Origin: a virus
Taxonomy: Duplodnaviria > Heunggongvirae > Uroviricota > Caudoviricetes
Direction: 5' to 3' (one strand)
Length of the DNA stretch: 64,000 nt
Virus record (IMG/VR): IMGVR_UViG_3300042868_014220
Positions 3,568-46,686 of the stretch are shown here, piece by piece (within the stretch, counting starts at the first letter, position 1; each line of letters begins with the position of its first letter). The position numbers and the translations under genes are program-made. The notes below the pieces were generated by a model, which saw only the letters and a program-made list of their open reading frames with translations, made no database searches and had not been told where the DNA came from.

Positions 3568-4161
3568 ATGAAAGTAATATTTTTGGACCACGATGGAGTT
3601 ATCTGTTTGTCAGAAAATTGGGGTAGCAGATACAAAAAAGCTCATAAATGGATGACTTATGGTAATATTCAAGAATATTCTCCTGACGCATTGAATGAAC
3701 TAACTCGTCCAGTAAATGTTCGTTTTGACAATTTTGACAAAAAAGCAATTAAAGTTCTTAATGAAATTTTAGAAAAAACAGGAGCAGAAATTGTTGTATC
3801 ATCCGATTGGAAAAATTGGGCAACCGTTGAAGAAATGGGAGAATATTACGAATCTCAAGGTATTATCAAAAAACCAATTGCATTTACCGACACAAAACTT
3901 TTAGACAACTACGATAACTTTCCGTGGAATCGAGAATTAGACTTAGAACAAACTCGTAGTTTGGAAATTGCCGAATATCTAACTGCATATAAATCCATTC
4001 TTAAATGGGTTGCAATTGATGATTTAGATATGTCACTGAGAAGAACTGAAGATGGTGAGTATAGTTGGGGGTTAAATAACTTTGTTCACACACCAAAAAG
4101 TAATCAGGGAATTAAACAATCAGGAATTAAAGAAAAAATAATTAAATTCTTAAATGATTAA
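3568..4161 (+). CDS. HAD-superfamily phosphatase-like protein
   Basis: N-terminal motif I FLDHDGV (DxDG), downstream VVSSDW; TTATCTTT promoter-like element immediately upstream. Confidence 0.55.
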   Translation: MKVIFLDHDGVICLSENWGSRYKKAHKWMTYGNIQEYSPDALNELTRPVNVRFDNFDKKAIKVLNEILEKTGAEIVVSSDWKNWATVEEMGEYYESQGIIKKPIAFTDTKLLDNYDNFPWNRELDLEQTRSLEIAEYLTAYKSILKWVAIDDLDMSLRRTEDGEYSWGLNNFVHTPKSNQGIKQSGIKEKIIKFLND

Positions 4162-7517: not shown

Positions 7518-7560
7518 GTATTAAATATATATTTTTAAATTCTGTTTGTCAATTTTTTTG

Positions 7561-7644
7561 CGGAAGGTGAGGGGTTCGAACCCTCGCATCATTTATAGAT
7601 GTACGGTTTAGCAAACCGCTGCGTTACCACTCTGCCAACCTTCC
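7561..7644 (-). tRNA. tRNA-Ser (GCT), type II
   Basis: 7-bp acceptor GGAAGGT/ACCTTCC, T-arm GAGGG-TTCGAAC-CCCTC, anticodon loop TTGCTAA, long variable arm. Confidence 0.65.
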
Positions 7645-7704
7645 TTGTATTATTACTGTTCCAAAATGAATAAAAAAATAGAGTTTTGGAACACTAATAA
7701 TTTT

Positions 7705-8181
7705 TTATCTTATTTTCCAGGCTCCGTTGATGTGTTTCTTCATTTGTTTACCATCGGCAAGGTTTCCGATTACAACACCATCTTTAATGGTAAACGCATG
7801 GCGATTAACAGTAACAATATAGGTCCCTACAGGATATCTTTTAATAAATGAACCCGTGGTTGTCCTCCTAAGAGTTTTCATACCTTTTACGGTTACATAA
7901 TATAACATTGTATTATGTTCTTCGGTAACGATTTCAATACTTTTACCGTTAATTTGTTCGTTGTTTTTAGATAACAAGTTTATTGTGCTTGCAAATCTAT
8001 AAACACCTTTTTTATTGTTTCTACAGAATTTTTCTTTTGTGAATTTGTGTGCAGAATCATAATCCATATCAGCTGCGGTTGCGATTGCTCTTACAACACA
8101 ATCATTATCTTCAGATTTTGCAATTACAGATTCTGATATTCCTTTGATTACTTCTCTTGATGATATATATCCCTTATTCAT
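7705..8181 (-). CDS. Hypothetical protein
   Basis: Protein-like ORF between tRNA-Ser and ferritin gene. Confidence 0.5.
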   Translation of the reverse strand: MNKGYISSREVIKGISESVIAKSEDNDCVVRAIATAADMDYDSAHKFTKEKFCRNNKKGVYRFASTINLLSKNNEQINGKSIEIVTEEHNTMLYYVTVKGMKTLRRTTTGSFIKRYPVGTYIVTVNRHAFTIKDGVVIGNLADGKQMKKHINGAWKIR

Positions 8182-8269
8182 GGTACAAAGATAAAGAAAA
8201 GATTTTAAACCGCAAAAAAAAATCCCACCGAATACTCAGAGGGATTTTACTTTAATGTATTTGTGTAGA

Positions 8270-8857
8270 TTAAAAATAAGTTTGCTCAAAGTATAAAACT
8301 TGGAATTTGTCAGTTTTACTTATAAGATTGGATGCATTGATTAAATCATTGTATTCAACTACGGCATCTTTTTGAATTTCTCTTAATTCTTGTAAAAAGT
8401 CAAAAGTTGTGATATCATCAGAAAAAACGGTATGAGAATCTTGATTGTATGCTTTCATTAAACTTAATTCCATTGTATATGCACCATATACGATTTCAAT
8501 TAAACCTGTGAATGTATGTTTTGGATTTGCAGCTGGAATTTGGGGGATAATGTTAAACCCTGTCATATAATCTTCAATTTTCTTTGCGTGGGTTAATTCA
8601 TCCAACGCTTCACTTTCAAAGAATGCTCCTGCTTTTTTGTAATTAGCATCGTTACACCAATTAGCTGCCGCTCTATAGAAATAATGTGCGGTATATTCAT
8701 CTTTAATTCTATCAGTTAATAGTTTAACTGTTTTGTCCGATAATACATATAACTTAGGTTCTTTAGATGAACTTAGTTTATTTTCACCAGACTTTTGTTC
8801 ATTCAACTTAATAGCTTTGAACAATTGGTCTCTTGTCATTGTGATTTTGTCTTCCAT
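8270..8857 (-). CDS. Ferritin-like iron-storage protein
   Basis: EYTAHYFYRAAANWC ... EALDELTHAKKIEDYM ... FDFLQELREIQKD pattern matches the bacterial ferritin di-iron site layout. Confidence 0.7.
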   Translation of the reverse strand: MEDKITMTRDQLFKAIKLNEQKSGENKLSSSKEPKLYVLSDKTVKLLTDRIKDEYTAHYFYRAAANWCNDANYKKAGAFFESEALDELTHAKKIEDYMTGFNIIPQIPAANPKHTFTGLIEIVYGAYTMELSLMKAYNQDSHTVFSDDITTFDFLQELREIQKDAVVEYNDLINASNLISKTDKFQVLYFEQTYF

Positions 8858-8890
8858 AACTATAAATACTACGAGTAATGAAAAAAATTG

Positions 8891-8962
8891 TAGCGACGGA
8901 AGGAATCGAACCTTCGACTTCTCGGATATGAGCCAAGTGTTCTTCCACTGAACTACATCGCC
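8891..8962 (-). tRNA. tRNA-Met (CAT)
   Basis: Cloverleaf parsed manually; anticodon loop CTCATAT; T-loop TTCGATT. Confidence 0.75.
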
Positions 8963-8969
8963 ATTTTTG

Positions 8970-9041
8970 TGGTTTTGAAAGGACTCGAACCCTCACTAAA
9001 AAATCCGTAATTTTACGTGCTATCCGTTACACCACAAAACC
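8970..9041 (-). tRNA. tRNA-Arg (ACG)
   Basis: Anticodon loop TTACGGA; T-arm GAGGG-TTCGAGT-CCTTT. Confidence 0.7.
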
Positions 9042-9045
9042 ATTG

Positions 9046-9117
9046 TTATCCCTTAAGGATTCGAACCTCAATTCATTGGCCCAAAACCAATTGTCCTGCC
9101 AATTAGACGAAGGGATA
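9046..9117 (-). tRNA. tRNA-Gln (TTG)
   Basis: Acceptor TATCCCT/AGGGATA; anticodon loop TTTTGGG. Confidence 0.75.
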
Positions 9118-9124
9118 ATTTTTG

Positions 9125-9206
9125 TGGGAGCAGTAGGACTCGAACCTACGAACTCAAAAGAGGGGACATTTACAGTGTCCTGCCATTGCCGCTAGACGAT
9201 ACTCCC
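9125..9206 (-). tRNA. tRNA-Tyr (GTA), type II (bacterial-type long variable arm)
   Basis: Acceptor GGGAGTA/TGCTCCC; anticodon stem-loop GGACA-CTGTAAA-TGTCC; 13-nt variable arm. Confidence 0.75.
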
Positions 9207-9279
9207 AAATAAGTTAAACTAACACCCTGACTCCTTTCGAACTTTGGGGGCTCGTATCATTCATTCTGTGTTAGTTTTG

Positions 9280-9352
9280 CACGCCTGATAGGAATCGAAC
9301 CTATAACACCTGGTTTTGGAGACCAGTGCTCTACCAATTGAGCTACAGACGC
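9280..9352 (-). tRNA. tRNA-Trp (CCA)
   Basis: Anticodon stem-loop CTGGT-CTCCAAA-ACCAG; canonical D-arm TAGCTCAATTGGTAGAGC. Confidence 0.8.
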
Positions 9353-9359
9353 GTATTTG

Positions 9360-9431
9360 AGGTCGGTACAGGAATTGAACCTGTGTAGATAGTTTTGCAG
9401 ACTACCGCCTAAACCACTCGACCAACCGACC
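9360..9431 (-). tRNA. tRNA-Cys (GCA), U73 discriminator
   Basis: Perfect acceptor GGTCGGT/ACCGACC; anticodon loop CTGCAAA. Confidence 0.7.
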
Positions 9432-9437
9432 TTATTG

Positions 9438-9512
9438 TGACCCCGCCAGGATTCGAACCTGGGACTCCCTAGTTAAAAGCTAGGTGCTCTAAACCAACTG
9501 AGCTACGAAGTC
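9438..9512 (-). tRNA. tRNA-Lys (TTT)
   Basis: Anticodon stem-loop CCTAG-CTTTTAA-CTAGG. Confidence 0.8.
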
Positions 9513-9518
9513 AAATTG

Positions 9519-9590
9519 TTGTCACGATAGGATTTGAACCTATGACCGCTTCCGTATCAGGGAAGAACTCTACCGCTGAGTTACGTGACA
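9519..9590 (-). tRNA. tRNA-Ile (GAT)
   Basis: Anticodon stem-loop CTTCC-CTGATAC-GGAAG. Confidence 0.8.
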
Positions 9591-9721
9591 ATTTATTAAA
9601 ATCAATTGTGGGTTTCCATTTCCACTCCGACAACTTCAGTCAATGTGATTTGTGGTAGTGTACCTCTACCTTAGACACTTCGGAACGACCCACTGTATGT
9701 GGTCTGTCGTTAATTGATTAG

Positions 9722-9803
9722 TGGTTAGAACAGGATTCGAACCTGTGACAATACAACCTTTACAGGGTGACATAACCTCTTTGCCATTACGTATTACCTA
9801 ACC
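9722..9803 (-). tRNA. Type II tRNA, anticodon probably GTA (second Tyr-like) with imperfect anticodon stem
   Basis: Acceptor GGTTAGG/TCTAACC, T-arm ACAGG-TTCGAAT-CCTGT, loop CTGTAAA, long variable region. Confidence 0.45.
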
Positions 9804-9808
9804 ATTTG

Positions 9809-9892
9809 CGGAAGCGAAGGGAATCGAACCCCCAATACGTTGCAGTACTACTTGTTTTCAAGACAAGCTCCTCGTCCATTCGGACCACTTCC
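9809..9892 (-). tRNA. tRNA-Ser (TGA), type II
   Basis: Anticodon stem-loop CTTGT-CTTGAAA-ACAAG; long variable arm. Confidence 0.75.
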
Positions 9893-9898
9893 AATTTG

Positions 9899-9974
9899 GG
9901 TGACTAACGGGAGTCGAACCCGTGACCTCTTGAACCACAATCAAGTGCTCTAAACCAACTGAGCTATAGCCAAC
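9899..9974 (-). tRNA. tRNA-His (GTG) with encoded G-1
   Basis: Anticodon stem-loop CTTGA-TTGTGGT-TCAAG; extra 5' G opposite C73. Confidence 0.75.
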
Positions 9975-9980
9975 ATGTTT

Positions 9981-10073
9981 GCTGATTAAAAAGGATTCGA
10001 ACCTTAATCCTACTCCCTATTGTCTTCGGTTAAGAATATCGTCGGGTGGAGTGCTCCATTACACTATAATCAA
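9981..10073 (-). tRNA. Atypical elongated tRNA-like gene (93 nt) with ~20-nt insert in anticodon/variable region
   Basis: Acceptor TTGATTA/TAATCAG, D-arm GTGT-AATGGA-GCAC, T-loop TTCGAAT intact; no canonical anticodon arm found. Confidence 0.35.
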
Positions 10074-10122
10074 TCGGATGCTTCGAATCATCCATTCTCA
10101 AGGTAATTAATCTTGAGTTTTG

Positions 10123-10232
10123 CAGTCAGGACAGGATTCGAACCTGTATGTGATTTGACATGCTTTTTTATAATGCTTCCTAAATCACTTATCCGCCTTC
10201 AGTTTTTGCGTCTACCATTCCGCCACCTAACT
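10123..10232 (-). tRNA. tRNA-Leu-like gene with ~27-nt insertion (110 nt)
   Basis: Acceptor AGTTAGG/CCTGACT, Leu-type D-arm TGGCGGAATGGTAGACGC, T-arm ACAGG-TTCGAAT-CCTGT; internal GTGATTT...AAATCAC hairpin. Confidence 0.4.
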
Positions 10233-10293
10233 AAATTCTAATTCTATACAGTCACAACATGGGACCCTATGAATTAGTAACAGTCTCACCTCG

Positions 10294-10384
10294 TAGTCAG
10301 TAGAGGATTCGAACCTCCCATCTATGTGGCTACCGTATTTGTGGTGACTCGAACACCGCCTCTAAGACTGACCAACATCCGACT
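10294..10384 (-). other. tRNA-like element with two T-arm modules (double-T-arm), no anticodon arm
   Basis: Acceptor AGTCGGA/ACTGACT; hairpins GGTG-TTCGAGT-CACC and GGAGG-TTCGAAT-CCTCT. Confidence 0.35.
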
Positions 10385-10511
10385 ATTTTGAAAAGATATA
10401 TGGTGTCGCTCCACAGCCTCTACAACCTAAGGATTTTGCTCAGAAGGGATATTATCCGCTCCGTACTTATCCGAGTTGCTAACCCTGTCCTTTCGAGACA
10501 GATATCTTTTG

Positions 10512-10584
10512 TGGTACGAACTGGAATCGAACCAGTGGCACAAGGATTTTCAGTCCTTTGCTCTACCTACTGAGCTACCATACC
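10512..10584 (-). tRNA. tRNA-Phe (GAA)
   Basis: Anticodon stem-loop AAGGA-CTGAAAA-TCCTT; D-arm TAGCTCAGTAGGTAGAGC. Confidence 0.8.
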
Positions 10585-10591
10585 ATTTTTG

Positions 10592-10663
10592 TAGCCCCTA
10601 CGGGAATCGAACCCGTCTTTCTAGAATGAAAATCTAACGTCCTAACCGATAGACGAAAGGGCC
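10592..10663 (-). tRNA. tRNA-Glu (TTC)
   Basis: Acceptor GGCCCTT/AAGGGCC... anticodon loop TTTTCAT. Confidence 0.7.
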
Positions 10664-10797
10664 AAATTGACTTTACCTTACAAAGTCTAAGTAGGTTTAG
10701 TTGCGGTCTCTCCTACCTGATGAAGGCTCTTTTTGTGATTAATCATCACAGGCACGTTATTCATCATTTTAACACGAAGCCAACGTGTTGCTCATCG

Positions 10798-10863
10798 TAG
10801 TCAATACAGGATTCGAACCTGCCCTTGGTAATTACTCCCGTGGTGCCGCTCCACTAATTGACT
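10798..10863 (-). other. Short (66 nt) degenerate tRNA-like element
   Basis: Acceptor AGTCAAT/ATTGACT, D-arm GTGG-AGCGGCA-CCAC, T-arm GCAGG-TTCGAAT-CCTGT; anticodon arm absent. Confidence 0.3.
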
Positions 10864-10891
10864 TCTCCAAGATAATTAGTCTTGAAGATTG

Positions 10892-10966
10892 TAGTCCCTG
10901 TAGGATTCGAACCTACGACCTATTGTTTGTAAGACAACCGCTCTAAACCAACTGAGCTAAGGGACT
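10892..10966 (-). tRNA. tRNA-Val (TAC)
   Basis: Anticodon stem-loop GTTGT-CTTACAA-ACAAT; perfect acceptor AGTCCCT/AGGGACT. Confidence 0.8.
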
Positions 10967-11039
10967 GTTTTTTCTAATATGTCAAAGAACCATTTTCTAA
11001 ATCAACGATACAAAGGTAATGTTATTTTCGATATAAACA

Positions 11040-11080
11040 AAAAAACCCCAAACTTTATTTACAAGTTCGGGGTTTTTATA
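11040..11080. terminator. Intrinsic terminator hairpin (aaaaccccaaacttt...aagttcggggttttt)
   Basis: GC-rich inverted repeat CCCCGAACTT/AAGTTCGGGG-like with T-run. Confidence 0.5.
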
Positions 11081-11279
11081 TTTTATTATTTCTAACTAAT
11101 TTTAACCTATTGTATTTACCGAACTCCAATTTCGCACATTGCGATACCAGCTACAAACTTCTTGTTGCTTAATAAACGACGACTTATGTTCCATTGATGT
11201 TCTCATTTTCTAATAATTATAACAATAATAGGAAAAGTTTCTTATTTGTCAAATATATTTTTCAGAGTATTTATAAAAG

Positions 11280-11702
11280 ATGAGAAATTTAAGACAAATT
11301 ATTAAAGAGGAATTATTATTAGAGAAAAAAATTGGTCAGATTAGAGCCTCTCTTGAAATTGCGTTTTTATTTGATGTTATTAGAACAACTCATGCACATA
11401 TTAGAACGACTAGAACAGGTATTGAAAATTACGAAAAAAGAGATATTGGAAATGACGAAATCAATGAACTTATTAATATGTCAAAAAGTGAAATTGCTGA
11501 AAAAATAGCAATGAGAGAAATTGTTCATGAACAAGACTTTGTAATAAAATCTTTAAGATGGCAGTTGGCATTAGCAATTAGAGCTATTCACGTAGATGGA
11601 ACTTATTGGGAATTACTTGTTAAGACTGTTTTCAGAGAATCCAAAGATAATCCATTTAAAGTTGGTGAGGGTCAATTAGTCATTTATTTAGATTTTAGAT
11701 AA
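11280..11702 (+). CDS. Hypothetical protein with N-terminal IIKEEL motif variant
   Basis: Promoter-like TTATTTGTCAAAT upstream; protein-like ORF. Confidence 0.5.
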   Translation: MRNLRQIIKEELLLEKKIGQIRASLEIAFLFDVIRTTHAHIRTTRTGIENYEKRDIGNDEINELINMSKSEIAEKIAMREIVHEQDFVIKSLRWQLALAIRAIHVDGTYWELLVKTVFRESKDNPFKVGEGQLVIYLDFR

Positions 11703-11890
11703 AAAAAGGATAACACTTGTATCTGAATCGTTCCCGTGTTACCCTTGGTACCCATGTGATTAAGCTTGTGTATCTGAATCGTTCTCCTCAATCACAGTAC
11801 AAAGATACAACAAAATTCCGAACCACAAAATTTATTCTATAATTTTTTTAATTGTCTTTAATGAATTGATTACTATCTTCTATTTATAGG

Positions 11891-12907
11891 TTGATGAAAA
11901 AAATTTTATTTATTCTAAAACAAAGAAACATCTATTCAAATGGCGTTTATTCAAACGTTGACAGTGGATTACAAAACTCGGCGAGATTTGTAAATGATAT
12001 GTTGGTTAAAAACAAAGTTGACTCTACACTAGTACAAGTGGTAGATAATAACGAAATCGACAAATATTGTACTATACACAAACCTGATGTTGTAATCATT
12101 GAAGCAATTTGGGTTGTTCCAAGTAAATTTGAGGTTTTAAAGAAACTACACCCGAATATCACTTGGATAATTAGATTACATTCTGAGTTACCATTTTTGG
12201 CAAACGAAGGTGTTGCAATGGAATGGTTAAAAGAATATGTAAAATACGATAACGTATTTATCGGTTCAAATTCAATTTATTTGATTGATGCCTTGTCTCC
12301 GTATTTGGGAACCAACATCATCTATCTACCAAATTATTATAAAGTAACAAGTAAAGAATCTGTAATAAAGGAAAATAATTATGGTGAGATAAATGTTGGA
12401 ATCTTTGGAGCAATAAGACCAATGAAAAATGCATTAACCCAAGCGGTTGCTGCAATCAATTATGCTAATATGAATAATCTAAAATTAAGATTACATATAA
12501 ACACGGCAAGAGTTGAACAAAAGGGTGAAAACGTATTGAAAAATTTAAGAGCTTTGTTTGTTGATACAAGACACGAATTAGTTGAACATGCATGGTTGAA
12601 ACATGAGGATTTTGTTAAATTGGTTGGGACAATGGATATCTGTTTACAAGTATCAATATCCGAAACCTACAATATTGTTGCTGCCGATGTAGTTAATCAA
12701 AGAGTTCCTGTTGTAACCACAGATGAAATTCCATTTGTTAATAGTTTTAGTTCTGTTAATTCTAACAAAAATGTTGAAAACATTATCTACACTATGAAGT
12801 TTAATCTAAGATTCAAAACTGTGTTAACCATCTTAAATAAGTTCTATTTGTTTGTAAATTCAAAAAGAGCTAAAATGGTTTGGATGAATTTCATCCATAA
12901 TTTTTAG
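11891..12907 (+). CDS. Hypothetical protein (338 aa)
   Basis: Long ORF; no motif recognised with confidence. Confidence 0.5.
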   Translation: MMKKILFILKQRNIYSNGVYSNVDSGLQNSARFVNDMLVKNKVDSTLVQVVDNNEIDKYCTIHKPDVVIIEAIWVVPSKFEVLKKLHPNITWIIRLHSELPFLANEGVAMEWLKEYVKYDNVFIGSNSIYLIDALSPYLGTNIIYLPNYYKVTSKESVIKENNYGEINVGIFGAIRPMKNALTQAVAAINYANMNNLKLRLHINTARVEQKGENVLKNLRALFVDTRHELVEHAWLKHEDFVKLVGTMDICLQVSISETYNIVAADVVNQRVPVVTTDEIPFVNSFSSVNSNKNVENIIYTMKFNLRFKTVLTILNKFYLFVNSKRAKMVWMNFIHNF

Positions 12908-12988
12908 TACCTTGGGTCGGACTCGAACCGACACGACTTTCGCCACAAGTTCCTAAGACTTGAGTGTCTACCATTTCACCACCAAGGC
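12908..12988 (-). tRNA. tRNA-Leu (TAG), type II
   Basis: D-arm TGGTGAAATGGTAGACAC, anticodon stem-loop CAAGT-CTTAGGA-ACTTG, long variable arm. Confidence 0.75.
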
Positions 12989-12991
12989 ATT

Positions 12992-13083
12992 TCATTATCG
13001 CTTCAGCCACATCGGGAAAGACGCCTCCCCCGCGTTGTTTAAGTGTATATCTTGCGTCGTATCTCACTGAGCTACGATAATGA
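12992..13083 (-). other. tRNA-like element with 9-bp acceptor stem and non-canonical T-loop (possible pseudo-tRNA)
   Basis: TCATTATCG...CGATAATGA terminal helix; internal TAGCTCAGTGAGA D-arm-like segment. Confidence 0.3.
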
Positions 13084-13087
13084 TTTG

Positions 13088-13161
13088 TAGTCCCAGTAGG
13101 ACTCGAACCTACGACCTACGGTTTAGAAAACCGTTGCTCTATCCAGTTGAGCTATGGGACC
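13088..13161 (-). tRNA. tRNA-Arg (TCT)
   Basis: Anticodon stem-loop ACGGT-TTTCTAA-ACCGT. Confidence 0.8.
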
Positions 13162-13168
13162 ATTTTTG

Positions 13169-13248
13169 TACCTGGGGAGAGACTCGAACTCTCATTCACA
13201 AGGAACTGAGGCTTAAACCCAGCGTGTCTACCATTTCACCACCCAGGC
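13169..13248 (-). tRNA. tRNA-Leu (TAA), type II
   Basis: Anticodon stem-loop CTGGG-TTTAAGC-CTCAG; D-arm TGGTGAAATGGTAGACAC. Confidence 0.7.
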
Positions 13249-13250
13249 GA

Positions 13251-14024
13251 CTATAGTTTAAAACTCTCTTCAAACAATGTATGACTTTCGTTTTCTTCTG
13301 TATTCATTGTATGTAGAAGTAATATGGTTGAATTGTTAAAATTAAAAATAAACCTACCATCAGAACCTTCGTTGATTTCCCAACCACCAAAATGAGATTC
13401 TAATTCTCTATAACACCAATCTTCAATTCCTGCAGGAACAGCATCACCTGTTTCCTCAAATGAACCTTCAATATATCCAGAATCACCACCACCATTATAT
13501 GGTATAGTCAAAATACCATCTTCAGGAACTTCAATCTCTTTCATATCTGTTTCCATCCAACGCTCAAATCTTTCGATATCATCAGCAGCATCATATTCAA
13601 CTGAGTTTTCATTACCTCTACCATAATAAGAAAACCAATATACAACAGTAATTTCTCTATTAGGACAATCAATTTCAAGGTCAATTTTTTGATAATTTAC
13701 CATATCAATATCCACAAAATCTATTGATTCAAACTTACCTGATTTTATAACCTTGTCCATAATTTTTTGTAAAATTGGAGTTAGATTTTCAGGTATGTCT
13801 GCTCTATAGTTATTTTCAAAATGAGTAACGTATTTCCATTTAATATCATCTGATGTTAGTTCTTGTTGTTGAATATCTAATTCAAAACCTACCACACCAA
13901 CACTCATACCTAATGAACCAAGGTAGTTACATATCCTATTAAGATATTTTTTTTCGTCTAATGTTAAAATTCCATTCATAATTATAAATATCAGTCTTCT
14001 ATTTTCATTGTCCTTAGCATCCAC
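13251..14024 (-). CDS. Hypothetical acidic protein
   Basis: Protein-like ORF. Confidence 0.5.
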   Translation of the reverse strand: MDAKDNENRRLIFIIMNGILTLDEKKYLNRICNYLGSLGMSVGVVGFELDIQQQELTSDDIKWKYVTHFENNYRADIPENLTPILQKIMDKVIKSGKFESIDFVDIDMVNYQKIDLEIDCPNREITVVYWFSYYGRGNENSVEYDAADDIERFERWMETDMKEIEVPEDGILTIPYNGGGDSGYIEGSFEETGDAVPAGIEDWCYRELESHFGGWEINEGSDGRFIFNFNNSTILLLHTMNTEENESHTLFEESFKL

Positions 14025-14338
14025 TGAGGTCTTTTATTCTCTAATAAATTGTCAATCCACTCCTTTGCGGATGGGATATAGTTATTACAATCTTCTCTGA
14101 CGTGTTGTTCACCGACATAACGAGTGTAAACTATTTTCCCATCACTATTGGTAAATTCGGACCCAAATTTCTTCTCCATCTCAAAAATACCTTCACTATG
14201 GTGTCTAAACATTCTGTGTAAAGAATCCGCAATCCAACCTTTTGTTTCATCCAACCATTCGTGTAAATGGATGTAATCTTCAGGTTTTCCACCAAACTTT
14301 TTAACCGAACTTTTTGCGTGTATGTTAGGATGTGCCAT
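13991..14338 (-). CDS. Hypothetical His-rich protein
   Basis: ORF; possible metal-binding His residues. Confidence 0.45.
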   Translation of the reverse strand: MAHPNIHAKSSVKKFGGKPEDYIHLHEWLDETKGWIADSLHRMFRHHSEGIFEMEKKFGSEFTNSDGKIVYTRYVGEQHVREDCNNYIPSAKEWIDNLLENKRPQWMLRTMKIED

Positions 14339-14345
14339 AGTTTAT

Positions 14346-14801
14346 TTAATAATCTTTTCCTTTGTGAAGTAAGTAAGTTGCGTAATATTTTAAGTCCGTT
14401 CCTTGATAATAAATTACAACATAATAATCTAAATCTCCTGAGGGAATATAATTAATCCATATCTTGTCTCCGCACTCATTCACAGCTGAAATTAATCTTA
14501 AACAATCACGAGTACTATCTTCATCCCACTCTTCAATAATTGAAAACTTCATAACAATACCTGCCCTTGTCTTTGAAAACGTAAATGAAGAGTCAGTTAG
14601 GTTAACGTGAAAGTGGTCATATTCCCATTTAGTTTTTTTCTTCGGTTTTCTAATCTTAACATTTTCTGCATCTTCAATCATTTTTTTTGAATTTTTGAAT
14701 TGGTATCTGTATATGGAATCCGCTTCTAAATTCTGACCATTTGCTTCGGACAATCCGAAGATAAATAGGAACATAAGTCCTATGATAAATTTTAACTTCA
14801 T
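14346..14801 (-). CDS. Secreted/lipoprotein-like hypothetical (start set at MKLKFIIGLMFLF signal peptide)
   Basis: Upstream part of track ORF overlaps tRNA-Ala; internal Met followed by hydrophobic signal. Confidence 0.5.
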   Translation of the reverse strand: MKLKFIIGLMFLFIFGLSEANGQNLEADSIYRYQFKNSKKMIEDAENVKIRKPKKKTKWEYDHFHVNLTDSSFTFSKTRAGIVMKFSIIEEWDEDSTRDCLRLISAVNECGDKIWINYIPSGDLDYYVVIYYQGTDLKYYATYLLHKGKDY

Positions 14802-14815
14802 ATTATTTTTTTTTG

Positions 14816-14890
14816 TGGAGACAATGGGTATCGAACCCACCTCAAAAACATTGCAAGTGTTTTTCGCCAAGCCTTGGTACATTTGCCCCC
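14816..14890 (-). tRNA. tRNA-Ala (TGC) with G3:U70
   Basis: Acceptor GGGGGCA/TGTCTCC with G3-U70 wobble; anticodon stem-loop AAACA-CTTGCAA-TGTTT; atypical D-arm. Confidence 0.6.
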
Positions 14891-15077
14891 GTTGTTTCTT
14901 AAATGGAATCGCCATTTGTTGCTTTGTAAATTGCAATAACCAAACCAACCACCCAACCAACAATAACTAAAGTGATTAGGACATCTTTCATTGATAATTT
15001 TCTTAACATATTCATACTATTTTTTTATTTAGGTCACAAAGATACTATAAAATTCTTAATTACCAAATTTATTTTTG

Positions 15078-15160
15078 AGCCTCCTGACGGATTCGAACCG
15101 CCGCGTCCTTACGAAACCTGATTACAAGTCAGGTGCAATCAACCACTATGCGAAGGAGGC
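15078..15160 (-). tRNA. Type II-length tRNA with apparent anticodon TGT (Thr) - identity ambiguous
   Basis: Acceptor GCCTCCT/AGGAGGC, anticodon stem-loop CCTGA-CTTGTAA-TCAGG, ~14-nt variable arm, T-arm GGCGG-TTCGAAT-CCGTC. Confidence 0.45.
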
Positions 15161-15169
15161 ATGTTTTGG

Positions 15170-15241
15170 CGGTCTATGCGGGAGTCGAACCCGCCTCACT
15201 ACCGTGACAAGGTAGCATCCTAGCCGATGAACGAATAGACC
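15170..15241 (-). tRNA. tRNA-Asp (GTC), CCA encoded (15167-15169)
   Basis: Anticodon stem-loop CTACC-TTGTCAC-GGTAG; acceptor GGTCTAT/ATAGACC. Confidence 0.75.
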
Positions 15242-15464
15242 AAATTTCCCCACCCTGAGATTATGGATGAGTGGATTTTAACGGTTTAGTTTTCTTAAAA
15301 ACAAACACATTAGTGTCTTACCACATGAAACTATAAATCAACACTACTGGGAGGAATTGTGTCAGTTCCTTGGTCCCAAGACCCCCTCTGTAAAATCGTG
15401 GAGGGCTACAACTACATCATTGTTAAGAAACGATGCCAAATCTGTGAGTATCTCTTACTCATTG

Positions 15465-15538
15465 AGCGAGTAGTCGGTCTCGAACCGACCCTATTTCACA
15501 TTGGAAGTGTGATGCCATACCAACTAGGCGATACTCGC
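15465..15538 (-). tRNA. tRNA-Gly (TCC)
   Basis: Acceptor GCGAGTA/TACTCGC; anticodon stem-loop TCACA-CTTCCAA-TGTGA. Confidence 0.7.
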
Positions 15539-15973
15539 AATTTTTAATTTAAAATGTAAATCTCTATGACAATTAGAACACAAAATATCACACTTATCAA
15601 TTTCATTTAATATTTTTGTCTTATTTCCTCTCCTAATTAAAGTAGAAACATCAATATCTTTTTCCTCAGGATTTCTGTGATGAAAATCTAAAACCCAATA
15701 TCTATTCTCACCACACACCTCACATTTTAATGTTTTTTTATAATCCGTAAACCATTCAATTATTGATTGTGTAAATACTTTTGCTTTATCAATATATTTT
15801 TTTTTATTTTTTTCATAGTGTTTTTTTCTATAATCACTTTGACATTTTCTACAGATATGTTGAAACATTTTTTCTTTTCTATCATATCTCGATGCGAAAT
15901 GGATATCATCCAACGGCAATTCTAACTCACATTTAGGACATATTTTTATTTTCATATCTATAAATACTTCCAA
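15524..15973 (-). CDS. HNH homing endonuclease
   Basis: Zn-finger CPKC...CRKC plus LDFHHRNPEEK...CSNCHRDLH HNH motif. Confidence 0.75.
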   Translation of the reverse strand: MEVFIDMKIKICPKCELELPLDDIHFASRYDRKEKMFQHICRKCQSDYRKKHYEKNKKKYIDKAKVFTQSIIEWFTDYKKTLKCEVCGENRYWVLDFHHRNPEEKDIDVSTLIRRGNKTKILNEIDKCDILCSNCHRDLHFKLKIASIA

Positions 15974-16006
15974 ATTATAAAAAAACTTGGAAGTGTTAAT
16001 TATTTG

Positions 16007-16090
16007 CTGGCACGGTAGGATTCGAACCTACGGTGTGGTTGCCCAGTCAGGTTAACAGCCTGATGCTCTCGGCCTCTAAGCGACGTACCA
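16007..16090 (-). tRNA. Type II-length tRNA with apparent anticodon GTT (Asn) - identity ambiguous
   Basis: Acceptor TGGTACG/CGTGCCA, anticodon stem-loop TCAGG-CTGTTAA-CCTGA, ~14-nt variable region. Confidence 0.45.
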
Positions 16091-16097
16091 ATATTTG

Positions 16098-16170
16098 TCG
16101 AAAGTGTTAGATTCGAACTACGCCCCAACCTCCCAAAGGTTATGTGCTACCTGACTACACCACACTCTCG
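16098..16170 (-). tRNA. tRNA-Pro (TGG), weak T-stem
   Basis: Anticodon stem-loop TAACC-TTTGGGA-GGTTG; T-loop TTCGAAT. Confidence 0.55.
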
Positions 16171-18198: not shown

Positions 18199-18288
18199 TA
18201 GTCAGGACAGGATTCGAACCTATAATCCGTTCTATCACCGTTTCTAGGGGATTCGAACCCCGATAGATAGGACAACCGTCACCTGACT
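18199..18288 (-). other. tRNA-like element with two T-arm modules (double-T-arm), shares acceptor AGTCAGG/CCTGACT with Leu-like genes
   Basis: Hairpins CGGGG-TTCGAAT-CCCCT and ATAGG-TTCGAAT-CCTGT; no D-arm or anticodon arm. Confidence 0.35.
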
Positions 18289-18572: not shown

Positions 18573-18702
18573 CAGTCAGGACAGGACTCGAACCTGTATA
18601 TCAACCTCTGCGACAGAGCAATTCTTATTATATGGTGCGACCCATTTTTATTATTGTTGTAGTTGACTATCTCTGTAGCGTCTACCATTCCGCCACCTGA
18701 CT
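18573..18702 (-). tRNA. tRNA-Leu-like gene carrying ~43-nt insertion in anticodon loop region (130 nt)
   Basis: Acceptor AGTCAGG/CCTGACT, Leu-type D-arm TGGCGGAATGGTAGACGC, anticodon stem ACAGAG/CTCTGT enclosing 43 nt, variable arm, T-arm ACAGG-TTCGAGT-CCTGT. Confidence 0.45.
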
Positions 18703-20334: not shown

Positions 20335-20411
20335 TGGGCCTAGAGGGATTTGAACCCCCGTGTAACCAGCTACGCTTTCTACGCATTATGAGTGCGAGGC
20401 GATATAGGCCC
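20335..20411 (-). other. Degenerate tRNA-like element (intact acceptor and T-arm, possible CAT anticodon loop, D-arm missing)
   Basis: Acceptor GGGCCTA/TAGGCCC, T-arm GGGGG-TTCAAAT-CCCTC. Confidence 0.3.
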
Positions 20412-21516: not shown

Positions 21517-21918
21517 TTATTTTTCTTTAACTATTTCAATTAATTTTTTAAGACAAGCAAGTTCTGCTTCTTCGTAAGTATTATAAGTTTCTTCAGAATA
21601 GATGTAAGTATTTTTGTCTAAATAAATAATAGAGTACATCCACTTTTTAGTATCATTTTTTCTATTTGCACTAATACCTACATCATTTAATAAATCATGT
21701 TTTTCTCTAAACCATCTAAATGCTTGTTGGTAAAGTGGTGTTGAAATGGTAAACATAGAACCAATGTTATAAAATTCATCAAGTGAATCATATTGTTTAT
21801 CGTCAGCAAACTTCCAATCTTTTCCATTTAGTGTGTAATAATATCCAAAACATTGTTCATCAAATCCAAGTTCTTTTAACGCTAACGCTTGTTCGTAAGG
21901 TATAAATTCTTTATTCAT
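21517..21918 (-). CDS. Hypothetical protein
   Basis: ORF. Confidence 0.5.
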   Translation of the reverse strand: MNKEFIPYEQALALKELGFDEQCFGYYYTLNGKDWKFADDKQYDSLDEFYNIGSMFTISTPLYQQAFRWFREKHDLLNDVGISANRKNDTKKWMYSIIYLDKNTYIYSEETYNTYEEAELACLKKLIEIVKEK

Positions 21919-21987
21919 GCCACAAATGTAATAAAATTTTTTGGTTTTGGAATTAAAATTGACTATTCTTCTAAAAAAATTAAGAAG

Positions 21988-22473
21988 ATGAGTGGAGTAT
22001 TAGTGTTGAATTATGATTATACACCCCTAAATATAACTTCTACAAGGAGGGGTTTTATACTTGTAGATAAAGGTAAGGCTGAGATTATCAAGTCAGATGA
22101 AACACCTATTGCAGGTGGATATAATAACTATGTTAGACCATTAATCATCAGGTTGTTGAGTTACATAAAATTCCATACCCGACTTATCAGAGTTAATAGG
22201 TCAAGAATTTATAAAAGAGATAATCACCAATGCGTATATTGTGATTCAAAGAAACAATTAACCTTGGACCACGTTATCCCTAAGTCTAGGGGTGGTAGTA
22301 ATGATTGGACTAACTTGGTAACCTGTTGTTTTAAATGTAACCTTAAAAAAGGTAATAGAACTCCTGAAGAAGCAAAGATGACAATGAGTGTAAAACCATT
22401 TGTCCCATCATTATTAAATGATAACGGAGCATTAAATAAAATTTGGAACGATTATCAAAACTCATTTGTATAA
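21988..22473 (+). CDS. HNH endonuclease (start trimmed to MSGVLVL)
   Basis: CVYCDSKKQLTLDHVIPKSRGGSNDWTNLVTCCFKCNLKKGNR canonical HNH. Confidence 0.75.
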   Translation: MSGVLVLNYDYTPLNITSTRRGFILVDKGKAEIIKSDETPIAGGYNNYVRPLIIRLLSYIKFHTRLIRVNRSRIYKRDNHQCVYCDSKKQLTLDHVIPKSRGGSNDWTNLVTCCFKCNLKKGNRTPEEAKMTMSVKPFVPSLLNDNGALNKIWNDYQNSFV

Positions 22474-28876: not shown

Positions 28877-29551
28877 ATGATTAAGATAGATAAAGATTTC
28901 AAAGGTGATGTGTGGATTTTTTCTGACCCCCACTATAACCACACAAACATTTGTCGTGGTATTACCAACTGGCGTTTACTTAACGGAGAAATTCCAGTTG
29001 ACCAAACTCGTGATTTCCCGAGCTTAGAAAAGATGAACTCATCAATTGTTAACAACATCAACGAAGTTGTTATGCAGGATGACATTTTAATTTGTCTTGG
29101 TGATTGGAGTTTTGGTGGTTTTGAATCTATTAGAGAATTTTGGGATAGAATTGTTTGTAAAAACATTCACTTAATTTTTGGAAACCACGACCATCACATT
29201 GAAAACAACAGACAAGGTTGTCAGGGTTTATTTAAGAGTGTATCTCACTACAACACATTAAAGATTGGTGAATACACATTCCGTTTGATGCACTACCCAA
29301 TCAGTTCTTGGGACGGTTTAAATAAAGGTGTTATGCATCTTCACGGACACTGTCATCTTCCAACCAACTTAAGATTTGGTAAGGGACAAAGAATGGACGT
29401 TGGAATGGATGGTCACCCTGAGTTCCGACCATACCACATTGTTCGTGAAGTGGTTCCTTTGTTAAAGAACAGACCAAAAGTATCCGAAATGGATAATGAC
29501 CACCACACAGATGAAATCACAGGTAGAGAAAAAGATAATAAATTTTTATAA
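28877..29551 (+). CDS. Calcineurin-like metallophosphoesterase
   Basis: GDWSFGG, GNHDHH, LHGHCH motifs. Confidence 0.7.
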   Translation: MIKIDKDFKGDVWIFSDPHYNHTNICRGITNWRLLNGEIPVDQTRDFPSLEKMNSSIVNNINEVVMQDDILICLGDWSFGGFESIREFWDRIVCKNIHLIFGNHDHHIENNRQGCQGLFKSVSHYNTLKIGEYTFRLMHYPISSWDGLNKGVMHLHGHCHLPTNLRFGKGQRMDVGMDGHPEFRPYHIVREVVPLLKNRPKVSEMDNDHHTDEITGREKDNKFL

Positions 29552-32432: not shown

Positions 32433-32512
32433 AACAACTAAAACTATGATAAAAATCCTCATCTTAATCAGTGGGGATTTTTTTATTCCATAATTTTTAT
32501 TATATTTGCATC

Positions 32513-33724
32513 GTGAATCAATTTTTATACACATTAGAACAATACTCAAGGACTGGCCATCTATTCAAACAAGACCATCCTACACTACCATTGTCTATAT
32601 GGAACTACACACCTGAAGTTCAATATGGTCAGTCGTGGGATGAGGTTACTTTGCAGTGTCGTGGATTGGTTACCGATAATGAAGGTAATATTGTTGCTCG
32701 TCCATTCAAAAAATTCTTCAACATAGAAGAAGGTAAACATACTCCAACTGAAGAGTTTGATGTGTTTGAAAAAATGGATGGTTCATTGGGTATTCTTTTT
32801 TATTATGAAGGTGAATTGTTAACTGATGAGGAAAGATATAACATATGGTTTAATAACAATTACGAAACAGGTATGGAAAGGTTCTTTGACCCAAATAAAC
32901 TACCAGAATTTGATAATCCATATTATAAACCAACACCAAAAACAAAAGGTGAATGGATATTTGCAAGTCGTGGTTCATTTACTTCGGACCAATCAAAAAA
33001 AGGTCGAGAATTACTTGAAAAGTATAACTACCAAAGATTGGATACTAACTACACTTATTTGTTTGAAATAATCTTCACCAAAAATAGAATAGTTGTGGAT
33101 TATGGTGATATGGAAGATTTGGTATTACTTGGAATGATACATACCAAAACTGGATATGAGGTTGATATACATTTGGGTAATGATAGAGATATCAGGTTTA
33201 AAAACTTGGTAAGAAATCTTGGATTTAACATCGTTAAAAAATATGATGGTATAAAGGATTACAACGCCTTAAAAGAAATGGTGGAAAACAATGCTGAAGG
33301 GTTTGTTGTTCTATTTTCTAATGGGGATAGAATGAAAGTTAAAGGTGAAGAGTATATTCGTCTTCACAAAATAATGACAAATATATCAACCACTGGTGTA
33401 TGGGAAATGCTGTCTTCAGGTGGTGATATTAACGAACACTTAAAAGATGTTCCTGACGAATTTTATCAAAAAGTTAAACAATATGCAGACAATTTGAAAT
33501 ACGCTTATTTTCAAGTATCAGAGCATTGTGGAAAATCTCACGATTATTTCCGTTATGGAAAATATGGTGATAGGGAAATTGAACCAACAAAGAAAGAATT
33601 TGCGGAGCATGTTATGAAATATTGTCATCCTCCATATCGTGCGGTGATGTTTGCAATGTGGGATGGAAAACCATATGAAAAGATTATTTGGCAAATAATT
33701 AAACCTGAATTTAAAAAACTTTAA
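32513..33724 (+). CDS. ATP-dependent RNA ligase-family nucleotidyltransferase (GTG start after TATATTTG promoter)
   Basis: Motif I KMDGS (KxDG), motif IV EGFVV, motif V KVKGEEYIRLHK. Confidence 0.65.
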   Translation: MNQFLYTLEQYSRTGHLFKQDHPTLPLSIWNYTPEVQYGQSWDEVTLQCRGLVTDNEGNIVARPFKKFFNIEEGKHTPTEEFDVFEKMDGSLGILFYYEGELLTDEERYNIWFNNNYETGMERFFDPNKLPEFDNPYYKPTPKTKGEWIFASRGSFTSDQSKKGRELLEKYNYQRLDTNYTYLFEIIFTKNRIVVDYGDMEDLVLLGMIHTKTGYEVDIHLGNDRDIRFKNLVRNLGFNIVKKYDGIKDYNALKEMVENNAEGFVVLFSNGDRMKVKGEEYIRLHKIMTNISTTGVWEMLSSGGDINEHLKDVPDEFYQKVKQYADNLKYAYFQVSEHCGKSHDYFRYGKYGDREIEPTKKEFAEHVMKYCHPPYRAVMFAMWDGKPYEKIIWQIIKPEFKKL

Positions 33725-46011: not shown

Positions 46012-46686
46012 ATGAAAATTGTATTCATTTCAGACACGCACGGTAAACATAAGATTTTAACATCTAAAGCGTATAATAACATCTTGGGTGAAGGTTTTTG
46101 TTTGGTTCATGCGGGAGATTGTACCAATGTTGGTAAAACTCACGAAATTAAGGAATTCTTGGATTGGTTTTCAGATACACCATTCACACATAAAATATTC
46201 ATTGCAGGTAATCACGATTTTGGATTTGAAAAGAACCACGATATTGACCAAGAATATAAAGACAAAGGTGTTCATTATCTTTTTGATAGTTCAGTTGAAA
46301 TTGAGGGAATTAAGTTCTACGGAAGTCCGTGGCAACCTGAATTTTATGATTGGGCATTCAACCTACCAAGAGGTGAAAAACTAGCTGAAAAGTGGGCTAA
46401 AATCCCTGAGGATAGTGATATCGTAATTACACACGGACCAGCATACGGAATGGTTGATGCCACAATCCAAGGTACGAATGTTGGATGTCACGATTTATTC
46501 CACCGACTTATGAAAGTTCAACCAAAAATTCACGTTTGTGGACACATACATTGGTCTTACGGTCAAAAATCATTTAATGGTATTGAGTTCTTAAATGCGT
46601 CTACCTTAAATGAAAGATATGAATATGAGAACAAACCAATTGTAATTGAATTTAATCCTGAGACAAAAGAAATTGACTATTTATAA
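46012..46686 (+). CDS. Calcineurin-like metallophosphoesterase
   Basis: FISDTHG, GDCTNVG, GNHD motifs; TATATTTG immediately upstream. Confidence 0.7.
   Translation: MKIVFISDTHGKHKILTSKAYNNILGEGFCLVHAGDCTNVGKTHEIKEFLDWFSDTPFTHKIFIAGNHDFGFEKNHDIDQEYKDKGVHYLFDSSVEIEGIKFYGSPWQPEFYDWAFNLPRGEKLAEKWAKIPEDSDIVITHGPAYGMVDATIQGTNVGCHDLFHRLMKVQPKIHVCGHIHWSYGQKSFNGIEFLNASTLNERYEYENKPIVIEFNPETKEIDYL

Follow-up and report, generated by a model that had tools for sequence, protein, structure and literature searches.

Two tRNA-like elements with a T-loop hairpin in the anticodon slot, candidate members of a phage-specific family of non-decoding tRNA look-alikes

The window analyzed here, a stretch of 64,000 nucleotides (nt) from the Caudoviricetes virus record IMGVR_UViG_3300042868_014220 in IMG/VR, carries two short elements, A and B, in which a transfer RNA (tRNA)-like acceptor helix encloses two hairpins that both have the sequence of a T-arm. 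By the usual tests A and B are not tRNAs. The explanation that we consider best as a whole, and put forward tentatively, is that they are genes for small, non-decoding, tRNA-shaped RNAs. Judged by sequence comparison, both belong to a phage-specific, tRNA-Leu-derived family in which a frame is kept and the body is swapped, and the conservation of A marks it as a selected, tRNA-like RNA gene. It is very probable that A gives rise to a functional, tRNA-like, processed RNA, while for B we put the chances of the same at even.

ARAGORN reports 23 tRNA genes in the whole window, spanning positions 7560-16170. Because all of them sit on the minus strand, A and B were read on that strand as well, and the plus-strand reading was dropped. 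Both elements lie where a preliminary description, made from the letters alone, had placed them, and with the architecture given there: an acceptor helix, two hairpins with T-loop sequence and no D-arm. Read from 18288 to 18199, A is AGTCAGG TG ACGGTTGTCCTATCTATC GGGG TTCGAAT CCCC TAGAAACGGTGATAGAACGGATT ATAGG TTCGAAT CCTGT CCTGACT A, and B, from 10384 to 10294, is AGTCGGA TG TTGGTCAGTCTTAGAGGC GGTG TTCGAGT CACC ACAAATACGGTAGCCACATAGATG GGAGG TTCGAAT CCTCT ACTGACT A. The segment lengths are common to the two (7, 2, 18, 4, 7, 4, 23 or 24, 5, 7, 5, 7 and 1), and their parts are the following.

18199..18288, minus strand: element A, A-type double-T-loop tRNA-like RNA gene, 90 nt, discriminator A at 18199
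18282..18288, minus strand: acceptor 5' strand of A, AGTCAGG (nt 1-7), pairing 7/7 with 18200-18206
18262..18281, minus strand: nt 8-27 of A, U8 and G9 and then a stretch of D-arm length with no D-stem
18247..18261, minus strand: internal hairpin of A, GGGG TTCGAAT CCCC, of T-arm sequence, with the loop (nt 32-38) in the anticodon slot
18224..18246, minus strand: variable-region analogue of A, 23 nt, containing the D-loop-like motif GAAACGGTGA and near-invariant among orthologues
18207..18223, minus strand: genuine T-arm of A, ATAGG TTCGAAT CCTGT, aligned as a T-arm by the Rfam tRNA model
18200..18206, minus strand: acceptor 3' strand of A, CCTGACT
10294..10384, minus strand: element B, divergent A-type paralogue, 91 nt
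10343..10357, minus strand: internal hairpin of B, GGTG TTCGAGT CACC, loop nt 32-38
10302..10318, minus strand: genuine T-arm of B, GGAGG TTCGAAT CCTCT
10367..10373, minus strand: inner alternative acceptor 5' strand of B, GGTCAGT, pairing 7/7 with ACTGACT at 10295-10301

ARAGORN called neither A nor B in its normal, intron or pseudogene mode. Scanned alone with the most permissive filters, A reached 26.1 bits against the Rfam tRNA model (RF00005), where the threshold is 29, and in this alignment the internal hairpin occupies the anticodon-arm slot, nt 10-26 appear as an insertion and the variable region carries an extra insert of 18 nt. B had no match to the Rfam tRNA model, only 19 bits to tRNA-Sec (threshold 47) in the inner register, and no other Rfam family fits either element. 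The 7-bp acceptor helix previously assigned to both elements holds for A (7/7, with A73), but in B the outer helix AGTCGGA/ACTGACT pairs in only 6/7 positions (one G.U, one A.A), and it is the inner register, a version of 79-80 nt starting at 10373, that pairs 7/7. Beside the acceptor 3' strand both elements have a 5-bp T-stem with a 7-nt TTCRANY loop, and in neither is there a D-arm, that is, a stem of 3-4 bp from nt 10 with G18 and G19 in its loop. The core used by LeuRS (U8-A14, G18-U55, G19-C56) is represented by U8, along with A73, but not by a D-arm with A14, G18 and G19. The preliminary description had also left A and B without an anticodon arm, which we have to correct: the anticodon slot is filled by a hairpin with a stem of 4 bp plus a mismatch, with U33 and A37 or G37, and with the sequence of a T-arm. 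The two hairpins there called consecutive do exist, but the first of them stands in the anticodon-loop position and is aligned to the anticodon arm by Rfam. The T-loop pentanucleotide U-N-N-R-A, closed by G-C, is found as sequence in both hairpins of A and B.

Other classes of RNA were considered and rejected. A tmRNA domain does not fit, since pair 3:70 is U-A, the elements are only 90 nt long and neither ARAGORN nor Rfam gives a tmRNA at A or B. For YrlA or another bacterial Y RNA there is no Rfam match at E <= 10 and no TROVE/Ro60 protein among the 40 window proteins scanned, and the CRISPR repeat and riboswitch families gave no credible Rfam match. As to introns, the ARAGORN intron mode gives a dubious call for one neighbouring element (C, see below) and none for A or B, and the inserts are too short for group I introns.

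To compare A and B with other phages, 47 related loci were retrieved from large IMG/VR phage contigs by way of the aminotransferase gene that adjoins the region; being selected by protein, they form an unbiased set. Homologues of the 299-aa neighbour of A also exist elsewhere, and a search via these gave two loci, neither of them with any tRNA-like element, so that A is not tied to the 299-aa gene. Our first, exact pattern for two nearby T-loops returned only complete tRNAs with stray T-arm remnants behind them. A degenerate pattern gave 72 IMG/VR loci and 44 distinct double-T-loop elements, which are divided into an A-type (including A of the window), a y-type (the most abundant), an x-type, a z-type and singletons; elements of the z-type have a normal D-arm together with a T-loop hairpin at the anticodon position. 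Since the degenerate pattern forced the loop sequence, the search was redone from flanking sequence only, and the 32 y-type internal loops then recovered were TTCGAGT in 28 cases, TTGGATT in 3 and TTCGATT in 1. The pentanucleotide UUCGA or UUGGA was present in 42/42 relatives recovered without forcing the loop. At the unbiased loci a D-arm was present in 0 of the 8 elements that carry an internal T-loop hairpin and in 40 of the 71 that do not (Fisher p = 0.002), data points that are not phylogenetically independent and to which the z-type is an exception.

Orthologues of A were found as 10 unique variants on 13 IMG/VR contigs in a search that left the internal hairpin unconstrained, and the internal loop was TTCGA(A/G)T in 10/10 of them. 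It had been left open whether the motifs were chance TTCGAA palindromes, and for A this can be excluded because the nonamer GTTCRADTC occurs 31 times in the window where 4.4 are expected (several times outside the ARAGORN genes) and because the A orthologues are conserved. The A-type is 95% identical overall. Mean column identity, with flanks of 40 nt, is 0.93 inside the element both for the A-type and for the y-type, compared with 0.38-0.54 in the flanks (0.46-0.54 for the A-type alone), and in both types it falls at acceptor position +1 and directly past the discriminator. With this difference, and with the helices kept, a pseudogene or fragment was rejected for A. Two-sided changes that preserve pairing are seen in the acceptor at 1:72 (A-U, G.U, G-C) and at 6:67 (G-C to A-T, in the A-type elements of L150 and L151) and in the T-stem (AGAGG/CCTCT to CAAGG/CCTTG), and the outer stem pair of the A-type internal hairpin is G-C, G.U, G.A or U-A among the orthologues. 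The unpaired GG at nt 12-13 of A is constant in the alignment while the neighbouring bases vary. The D-loop-like motif GAAACGGTGA also occurs in B and in an element with a CAU loop at 20335-20411. One A-type copy, L154:4136-4238, has its 3' acceptor strand destroyed (CTTCAAA for CTTGACT); it is apparently a decayed copy, so copies can be lost.

B is a more difficult case. Its first 20 nt, TGTTGGTCAGTC, are common to the A-type elements of L110 and L123, and it is divergent elsewhere. Compared with the family described below it matches with the substitutions AGTCGGA, ACTGACT and GGAGG/CCTCT, and searches specific for B in viral and metagenome collections gave no orthologue. From its sequence we take B for a paralogue of A, specific to this lineage and perhaps in decay.

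The y-type gives the clearest indication of a selected fold. A model with five helices (acceptor, T-loop hairpin, a 4-bp hairpin with an NGGA loop, a GGG/CCC hairpin and T-arm) was fixed before substitutions were counted, and the same five helices also come out of minimum free energy (MFE) folding of single sequences. In this model 97% of the cells are paired and there are 8 two-sided pairs, a number equalled in 1/500 shuffles; the covariation score is 0.143 versus 0.076 (0/500 shuffles), and slid partners give at most one two-sided pair. Between the same contig pairs the y-type is 0.92-0.96 identical and every canonical tRNA species 0.67-0.85, the y-type value being biased upward because these elements were found by a sequence pattern. 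Three y-type copies with the loop TTGGATT (L141:486-577, L141:921-1012 and L149:553-643) have GTTG TGG CAAC as the neighbouring 4-bp hairpin; the two changes co-occur in one lineage, which may reflect a loop-loop contact. The two L141 copies are 435 nt apart.

For the A-type, RNAalifold predicts a long arm made of GTCC/GGAT and UCUAUCG/UGAUAGA with the T-loop hairpin at its tip, which would hold the two T-loops apart, and the three changes seen in GTCC/GGAT all preserve pairing. Alternatively a CUA/UAG stem could form around the D-loop-like GAAACGGUGA. The proposed arm is not kept in B, and there is no stem around the D-loop-like motif of B. Thermodynamic z-scores were uninformative, as is usual for tRNA-sized RNAs.

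The preliminary description knew just two such elements, but reading the gaps of the array revealed at least five further tRNA-like genes in the region that ARAGORN had missed, all with bodies in place of the anticodon and variable arms.

18573..18702, minus strand: element C, AGTCAGG frame, Leu-type D-arm, body of about 80 nt; dubious Ile(aat) in the ARAGORN intron mode
10123..10232, minus strand: element D, AGTTAGG frame, Leu-type D-arm, 110 nt; Rfam tRNA 36.3 bits with a long insertion
10798..10863, minus strand: element E, AGTCAAT/ATTGACT, 66 nt, shortened body
9983..10076, minus strand: element F, TGATTAT...TTAATCA
9722..9803, minus strand: element G, GGTTAGG/TCTAACC, 82 nt; pseudo-tRNA in ARAGORN -ps

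C and D have the acceptor and T-arm as in A and, in addition, a Leu-type D-arm; the L013 orthologue of element F has an internal hairpin, TGAAG TTCGAGT CTTCA. The kinship of A and B to Leu-like genes suggested before is correct in that the acceptor, T-arm, A73 and CAA trailer are common to a family, but the relatives are C and D and not real tRNA-Leu genes, and the tRNA-Leu(TAA/TAG) genes of this phage have a different acceptor from A. The family is defined by AGTCAGG/CCTGACT, (A/G)CAGG TTCGA(A/G)T CCTGT, A73, U at -1 and a C(A)A trailer, and A matches it in every feature (acceptor, T-arm, A73, U at -1, trailer and the strand of the tRNA array). B likewise has U at -1, A73 and the CAA trailer, as do the real tRNAs of the phage.

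The covariance search for the same architecture in other phages that had been proposed recovered, at IMG/VR loci, double-T-loop elements as well as the wider family. A covariance model, R1, was built from eight double-T-loop elements; these source elements score 69-99 bits (A 74.6, B 69), and then, after a gap, follows a population of elements of 80-180 nt. Its frame consists of a 5' block, AGTCAGG TG GCGGAAT(T)GGTAGACGC, and a 3' block, (T)ACAGG TTCGAAT CCTGT CCTGACT A, with a hypervariable body of 30-130 nt in between. An acceptor/T-arm scan gave 103 different non-canonical members (median 104 nt), on which ARAGORN labels are occasional, inconsistent and arbitrary. Most members have the Leu-type D-arm GCGGAATGGTAGACGC, which matches annotated tRNA-Leu genes in GenBank phages, and only the acceptor/T-arm stack is common to all. 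Paralogous bodies differ and orthologous bodies are conserved between phages; the swapped modules are T-loop hairpins, GNRA hairpins and longer structured inserts, and one recognisable module is an ACCAC-GNRA-GTGGT hairpin. In three members (L031:6332-6409, L034:8974-9051 and L055:4891-4968) the anticodon arm is replaced by a 5-bp stem with a tetraloop, conserved across the three phages, that is GTAA or GTGA (GNRA) in two of them and ATAA in the third. Frame elements cluster at the syntenic tRNA-Phe/tRNA-His site, where the window has 3 copies, L017 has 5 and L013 has 13. The orthologues L017:6159-6260 and L021:8144-8248 have a body with CACCTCCC(C)AAGG, like the anti-Shine-Dalgarno end of 16S rRNA, a likeness that may be a coincidence.

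To find out where the frame occurs, we scanned one genome each of 185,579 bacterial and archaeal species, with the body allowed to be short enough to include a canonical type II tRNA. There were six matches only, all of them non-canonical members on short, low-GC contigs of metagenome-assembled genomes (MAGs) with discordant taxonomy; of these six MAG bins two are Chitinophagaceae and Bacteroidia. No cellular tRNA in this species set was thus found to carry the frame, and a cellular tRNA was rejected as the mimicked model. In GenBank phages, blastn with the regions, A, the y-type and the frame found no relative, only generic D-arm and T-arm pieces of tRNA-Leu, the 5' block alone matching the D-arm region of annotated tRNA-Leu genes at 82-86%. 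From the species scan and the GenBank matches together we take the frame to be phage-specific, derived from tRNA-Leu and a copy of no cellular tRNA in the species set. An origin of A and B by internal rearrangement, as was proposed earlier, is plausible from their sequences, while a role as primer or recombination hotspot finds no support. We found no description of the frame family, or of a T-loop hairpin in the anticodon slot, in the open-access literature, and this large family of non-decoding tRNA look-alikes in freshwater-phage tRNA arrays is apparently undescribed.

The immediate surroundings of the frame members resemble those of tRNAs. At the unbiased loci T at -1 was found in 61/68 members, the discriminator A in 59/68 and the CAA trailer in 35/68, and for canonical tRNAs of the same phages the numbers were 190/262 for T at -1 and 160/262 for CAA. 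RNase Z and the CCA-adding enzyme measure from the elbow of the tRNA. RNase P binds the acceptor/T-arm stack and requires the T-loop but not the D-loop (PMC4919913). We envisage that the RNAs of A and B would be co-transcribed with the neighbouring tRNAs and genes, that RNase P would cut the 5' end, and that the 3' end would be made by RNase Z or exonucleases together with the CCA-adding enzyme. These enzymes would recognise the T-loop and the acceptor/T-arm stack and take no account of D-arm or anticodon, and the processed RNAs could persist as stable tRNA mimics.

As for function, such mimics might occupy or titrate a factor that recognises the body, the acceptor end or the elbow of a tRNA. 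The likeliest targets would be host defence enzymes directed against tRNAs, or enzymes that modify or process tRNAs and bind the T-arm. Since the mimics would stand outside decoding, damage to them would cost the phage nothing. That a mimic or decoy is specifically the mechanism is possible by analogy, though we would rather doubt it than assert it; the RNA-repair genes of the window (listed below) provide a circumstantial context. Phage tRNA loci have been found to serve in counter-defence: some defence systems cut type II tRNAs, variants or extra copies of tRNA genes let phages evade them, and a homing endonuclease drives the amplification of tRNA loci (PMC13096335). The anticodon arm is dispensable for leucylation by LeuRS, which needs the U8-A14 and G18/G19 core (PMC2377443), so that charging by LeuRS is conceivable for the siblings that have the D-arm and A73, but A and B are without that core.

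Several observations speak against genes for non-decoding tRNA mimics and should be kept in mind. The y-type identity is inflated as stated above, and the A-type is too invariant to prove its internal arm, with one two-sided pair that was equalled in 58/500 shuffles. The minimum-energy or centroid fold of A, B and the L123 element pairs the two T-arm sequences with each other by way of the TTCGAA palindrome. B lacks an orthologue and its outer acceptor helix is imperfect. One would expect the decoy of an anticodon nuclease to retain the anticodon loop of the target, and A and B do not retain it. Finally, the internal loop of A and B (nt 32-38) formally fits an anticodon loop, with U33, CGA and a purine at 37, and one element with the same layout as A and B and likewise without a D-arm scores above the Rfam tRNA threshold.

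20335-20411, minus strand: CAU element, 77 nt, missed by ARAGORN, with a perfect acceptor stem and 34.6 bits to the Rfam tRNA model

In this CAU element a short linker stands for the D-arm, the hairpin has a Met-type loop (CTCATAA), and a D-loop-like AGCTGGTTA past the hairpin is followed by the T-arm. The orthologues in L157 and L181 have two-sided changes in both stems. Its Rfam alignment has the same shape as that of A, and the motif past the hairpin resembles A and B; from this likeness the scaffold of A and B can also carry an anticodon-like loop. The window has 239 ATA codons and the ARAGORN list holds no tRNA-Ile able to read them, so the CAU element could be an Ile2- or Met-type decoder, although its shape would be unprecedented. 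If functional, D-arm-less elements with real anticodon loops would be the first outside mitochondria.

The last two points raise the question of whether A and B themselves are true decoding tRNAs of an unusual shape, with no D-arm, a long variable region and an anticodon CGA reading UCG (GGA in some relatives). The placement of the internal hairpin of A in the anticodon arm by Rfam agrees with this, and so does the variation of the y-type loop in the set recovered from flanking sequence, where position 3, the wobble slot, changes from C to G in one lineage and positions 4-5 are constant; the family's genuine T-loops have A at position 4 in 10/79 and never G at position 3. We nevertheless find decoding improbable. 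UCG makes up just 6.7% of the Ser codons and the phage already has a tRNA-Ser(UGA), several relatives have a pyrimidine at 37 (TTCGATT, TTGGATT, TTCGACT), and the internal 11-mer GGTTCGAATCC is the same as that of the element's own T-arm. Furthermore the acceptor, A73 and T-arm of A are common to dozens of siblings without an anticodon loop, A stays below the Rfam threshold, and D-arm-less tRNAs have been described only in mitochondria (PMC7609411).

Three further explanations were weighed. In tRNA punctuation A and B would be only RNase P and RNase Z cut sites that separate neighbouring mRNAs and tRNAs, which would agree with the gene order (A begins 6 nt past the stop of an 87-aa open reading frame (ORF) and lies 61 nt upstream of the 299-aa gene, and 14 nt separate the end of C from the start codon (ATG) of that ORF), with the acceptor/T-arm stack as the sole part common to all members, and with the tRNA-like -1 U and CAA context. 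This is unlikely when body and frame are equally well conserved (0.93-0.95) between contigs with saturated flanks, when the y-type side hairpins show two-sided changes that preserve pairing, and when most copies lie between other tRNAs, where an extra cleavage signal is needless. It is still less probable that the elements are by-products of duplication and recombination in the array, functionless pseudogenes whose second T-arm is a scar. B, with the defects listed above and no stem at its D-loop-like motif, would suit such an origin, as would the decayed L154 copy, the copy number of 3 to 13 at the Phe-His hotspot and the HNH endonuclease genes in or near the array, homing endonucleases being known to amplify tRNA loci. 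For A and the y-type the sharp conservation boundaries and compensatory changes, and for the y-type also the identity above that of real tRNAs, argue against it, and for A the conservation of the sequence already refutes it. If the elements were small, mobile or selfish, and moved from one phage genome to another, this would explain why the y-type is more alike between contigs than the canonical tRNAs and why neighbours differ by contig, flanks are unrelated and copy number varies. We rate this lowest of all and consider it very improbable: the flank alignments contain no target-site duplication or conserved flank, neither a transposase nor a reverse transcriptase was found in a scan of 40 window proteins, the substitutions are non-random and preserve pairing, and the y-type identity is inflated by the way the elements were found.

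A more elaborate form of the preferred reading, that A and B are genes for non-decoding tRNA-shaped RNAs, would be a modular library, where the invariant Leu-derived frame provides tRNA-style processing and stability for interchangeable bodies and the second T-loop docks on elbows or on readers of the elbow and T-arm. Its targets could be RNase P, the L1 stalk, T-arm-modifying enzymes or tRNA-targeting defence toxins, and the second T-loop would have an elbow-like surface or be interlocked. We mention this as a speculation that is unlikely to be right in full; were it true, the phages would have a means of countering defences or hijacking translation that consists of RNA and has no protein part.

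Non-decoding mimics of tRNAs include the vtRNAs of the gammaherpesvirus MHV68, the stable RNAs 'species 1 and 2' in the tRNA cluster of phage T4 and the bacterial YrlA Y RNAs. A and B have in common with these the acceptor and T-arm domains and the neighbourhood of tRNA genes, and would also share the use of the tRNA-processing machinery and the absence of decoding, but there is no sequence or Rfam relationship. To our knowledge none of the three forms a multi-copy family whose bodies are exchanged within one constant frame, or carries a second T-loop where the anticodon would be. A is apparently a kind of non-decoding tRNA mimic, from a phage family that seems to be undescribed.

On sequence grounds the frame probably descends from the bacterial type II tRNA-Leu, which has the same 7-bp acceptor, A73, 5-bp T-arm with GGTTCGAATCC and long region before the T-arm. 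A and B differ from it by having no D-stem or Leu anticodon, by an acceptor that starts with A1-U72 and by the lack of a recognisable core of the kind required by LeuRS. The D-arm-less mitochondrial tRNAs (for example nematode and mammalian tRNA-Ser) have an unpaired connector and keep the acceptor, anticodon hairpin and T-arm (PMC7609411), and in the replacement of the D-arm with the other arms kept they resemble A and B. They are short, AT-rich decoders with co-evolved translation factors and confined to organelles, whereas A and B, at 90 nt, have an extended variable region and T-loop sequence at the anticodon position, and belong to a phage of bacteria. The interdigitated double T-loop of T-box Stem I, RNase P and the L1 stalk is a recurrent device for docking on the tRNA elbow, and it has been suggested in a review that this module should be sought in viral RNAs (PMC4919913). 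A and B share with it two T-loop pentanucleotides (U..RA) in one RNA, in their case as sequence only; in the known modules a bulge and an apical loop of a single stem supply the two T-loops, which interlock, but in A and B each T-loop sits on a hairpin of its own, the T-arm of the element being one of the two hairpins. Some viral candidates of a 2023 survey of structured RNAs in IMG/VR overlap ARAGORN tRNA calls and are tRNAs or tRNA-like, and we found in that survey no description of the frame, of anticodon-slot T-loops or of a multi-copy family (PMC10690425).

Phage tRNA arrays are usually read as kits of ordinary tRNAs for codon supply or counter-defence, but in this lineage a sizeable share of the array consists of look-alikes that would be unable to decode normally, some of them kept more faithfully than real tRNAs. 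Standard tRNA finders miss this whole population of conserved genes in viral metagenomes. Should the products prove to be stable RNAs, they would constitute a new class of non-coding RNA in phages, a natural counterpart of the laboratory 'tRNA scaffold' for the expression of structured RNAs, and a handle on how phages interfere with enzymes that read the shape of a tRNA rather than its anticodon.

The G+C content of the window is about 30%. A protein domain scan identified the RNA-repair genes referred to above, and the window contains some further genes that bear on the array or the host.

3568-4161, plus strand: RNA-repair HAD protein (HAD_SAK_2, 'Swiss Army Knife')
28877-29551 and 46012-46686, plus strand: two metallophosphoesterases
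32471-33724, plus strand: T4 Rnl1-type RNA ligase
15524-15973, minus strand: HNH endonuclease gene inside the tRNA array
21889-22473, plus strand: HNH endonuclease gene beside the array
62387-63862, minus strand: protein with a T9SS C-terminal sorting domain (Por_Secre_tail)

The ligase, the HAD protein and the two metallophosphoesterases suggest a capacity of the phage for tRNA or RNA repair, the HNH genes may bear on why the tRNA-like family differs in copy number at the Phe-His hotspot, and the T9SS sorting domain points to a host among the Bacteroidota. An ORF at 11891-12907 on the plus strand, within the minus-strand tRNA array, resembles glycosyltransferases of family 4 weakly and below threshold (Pfam GT4-conflict 16.6 bits, cut-off 26; PHROG E = 2e-4). 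According to the ARAGORN drawings the tRNA-Thr(TGT) gene at 15077-15160 (minus strand, 84 nt) and the tRNA-Asn(GTT) gene at 16006-16090 (minus strand, 85 nt) have long, base-paired variable arms, a type II shape that is unusual for Thr and Asn. In many IMG/VR phages there are also tRNA-Met(CAT) genes of 85 nt with a variable hairpin TCA-GAAA-TGA.

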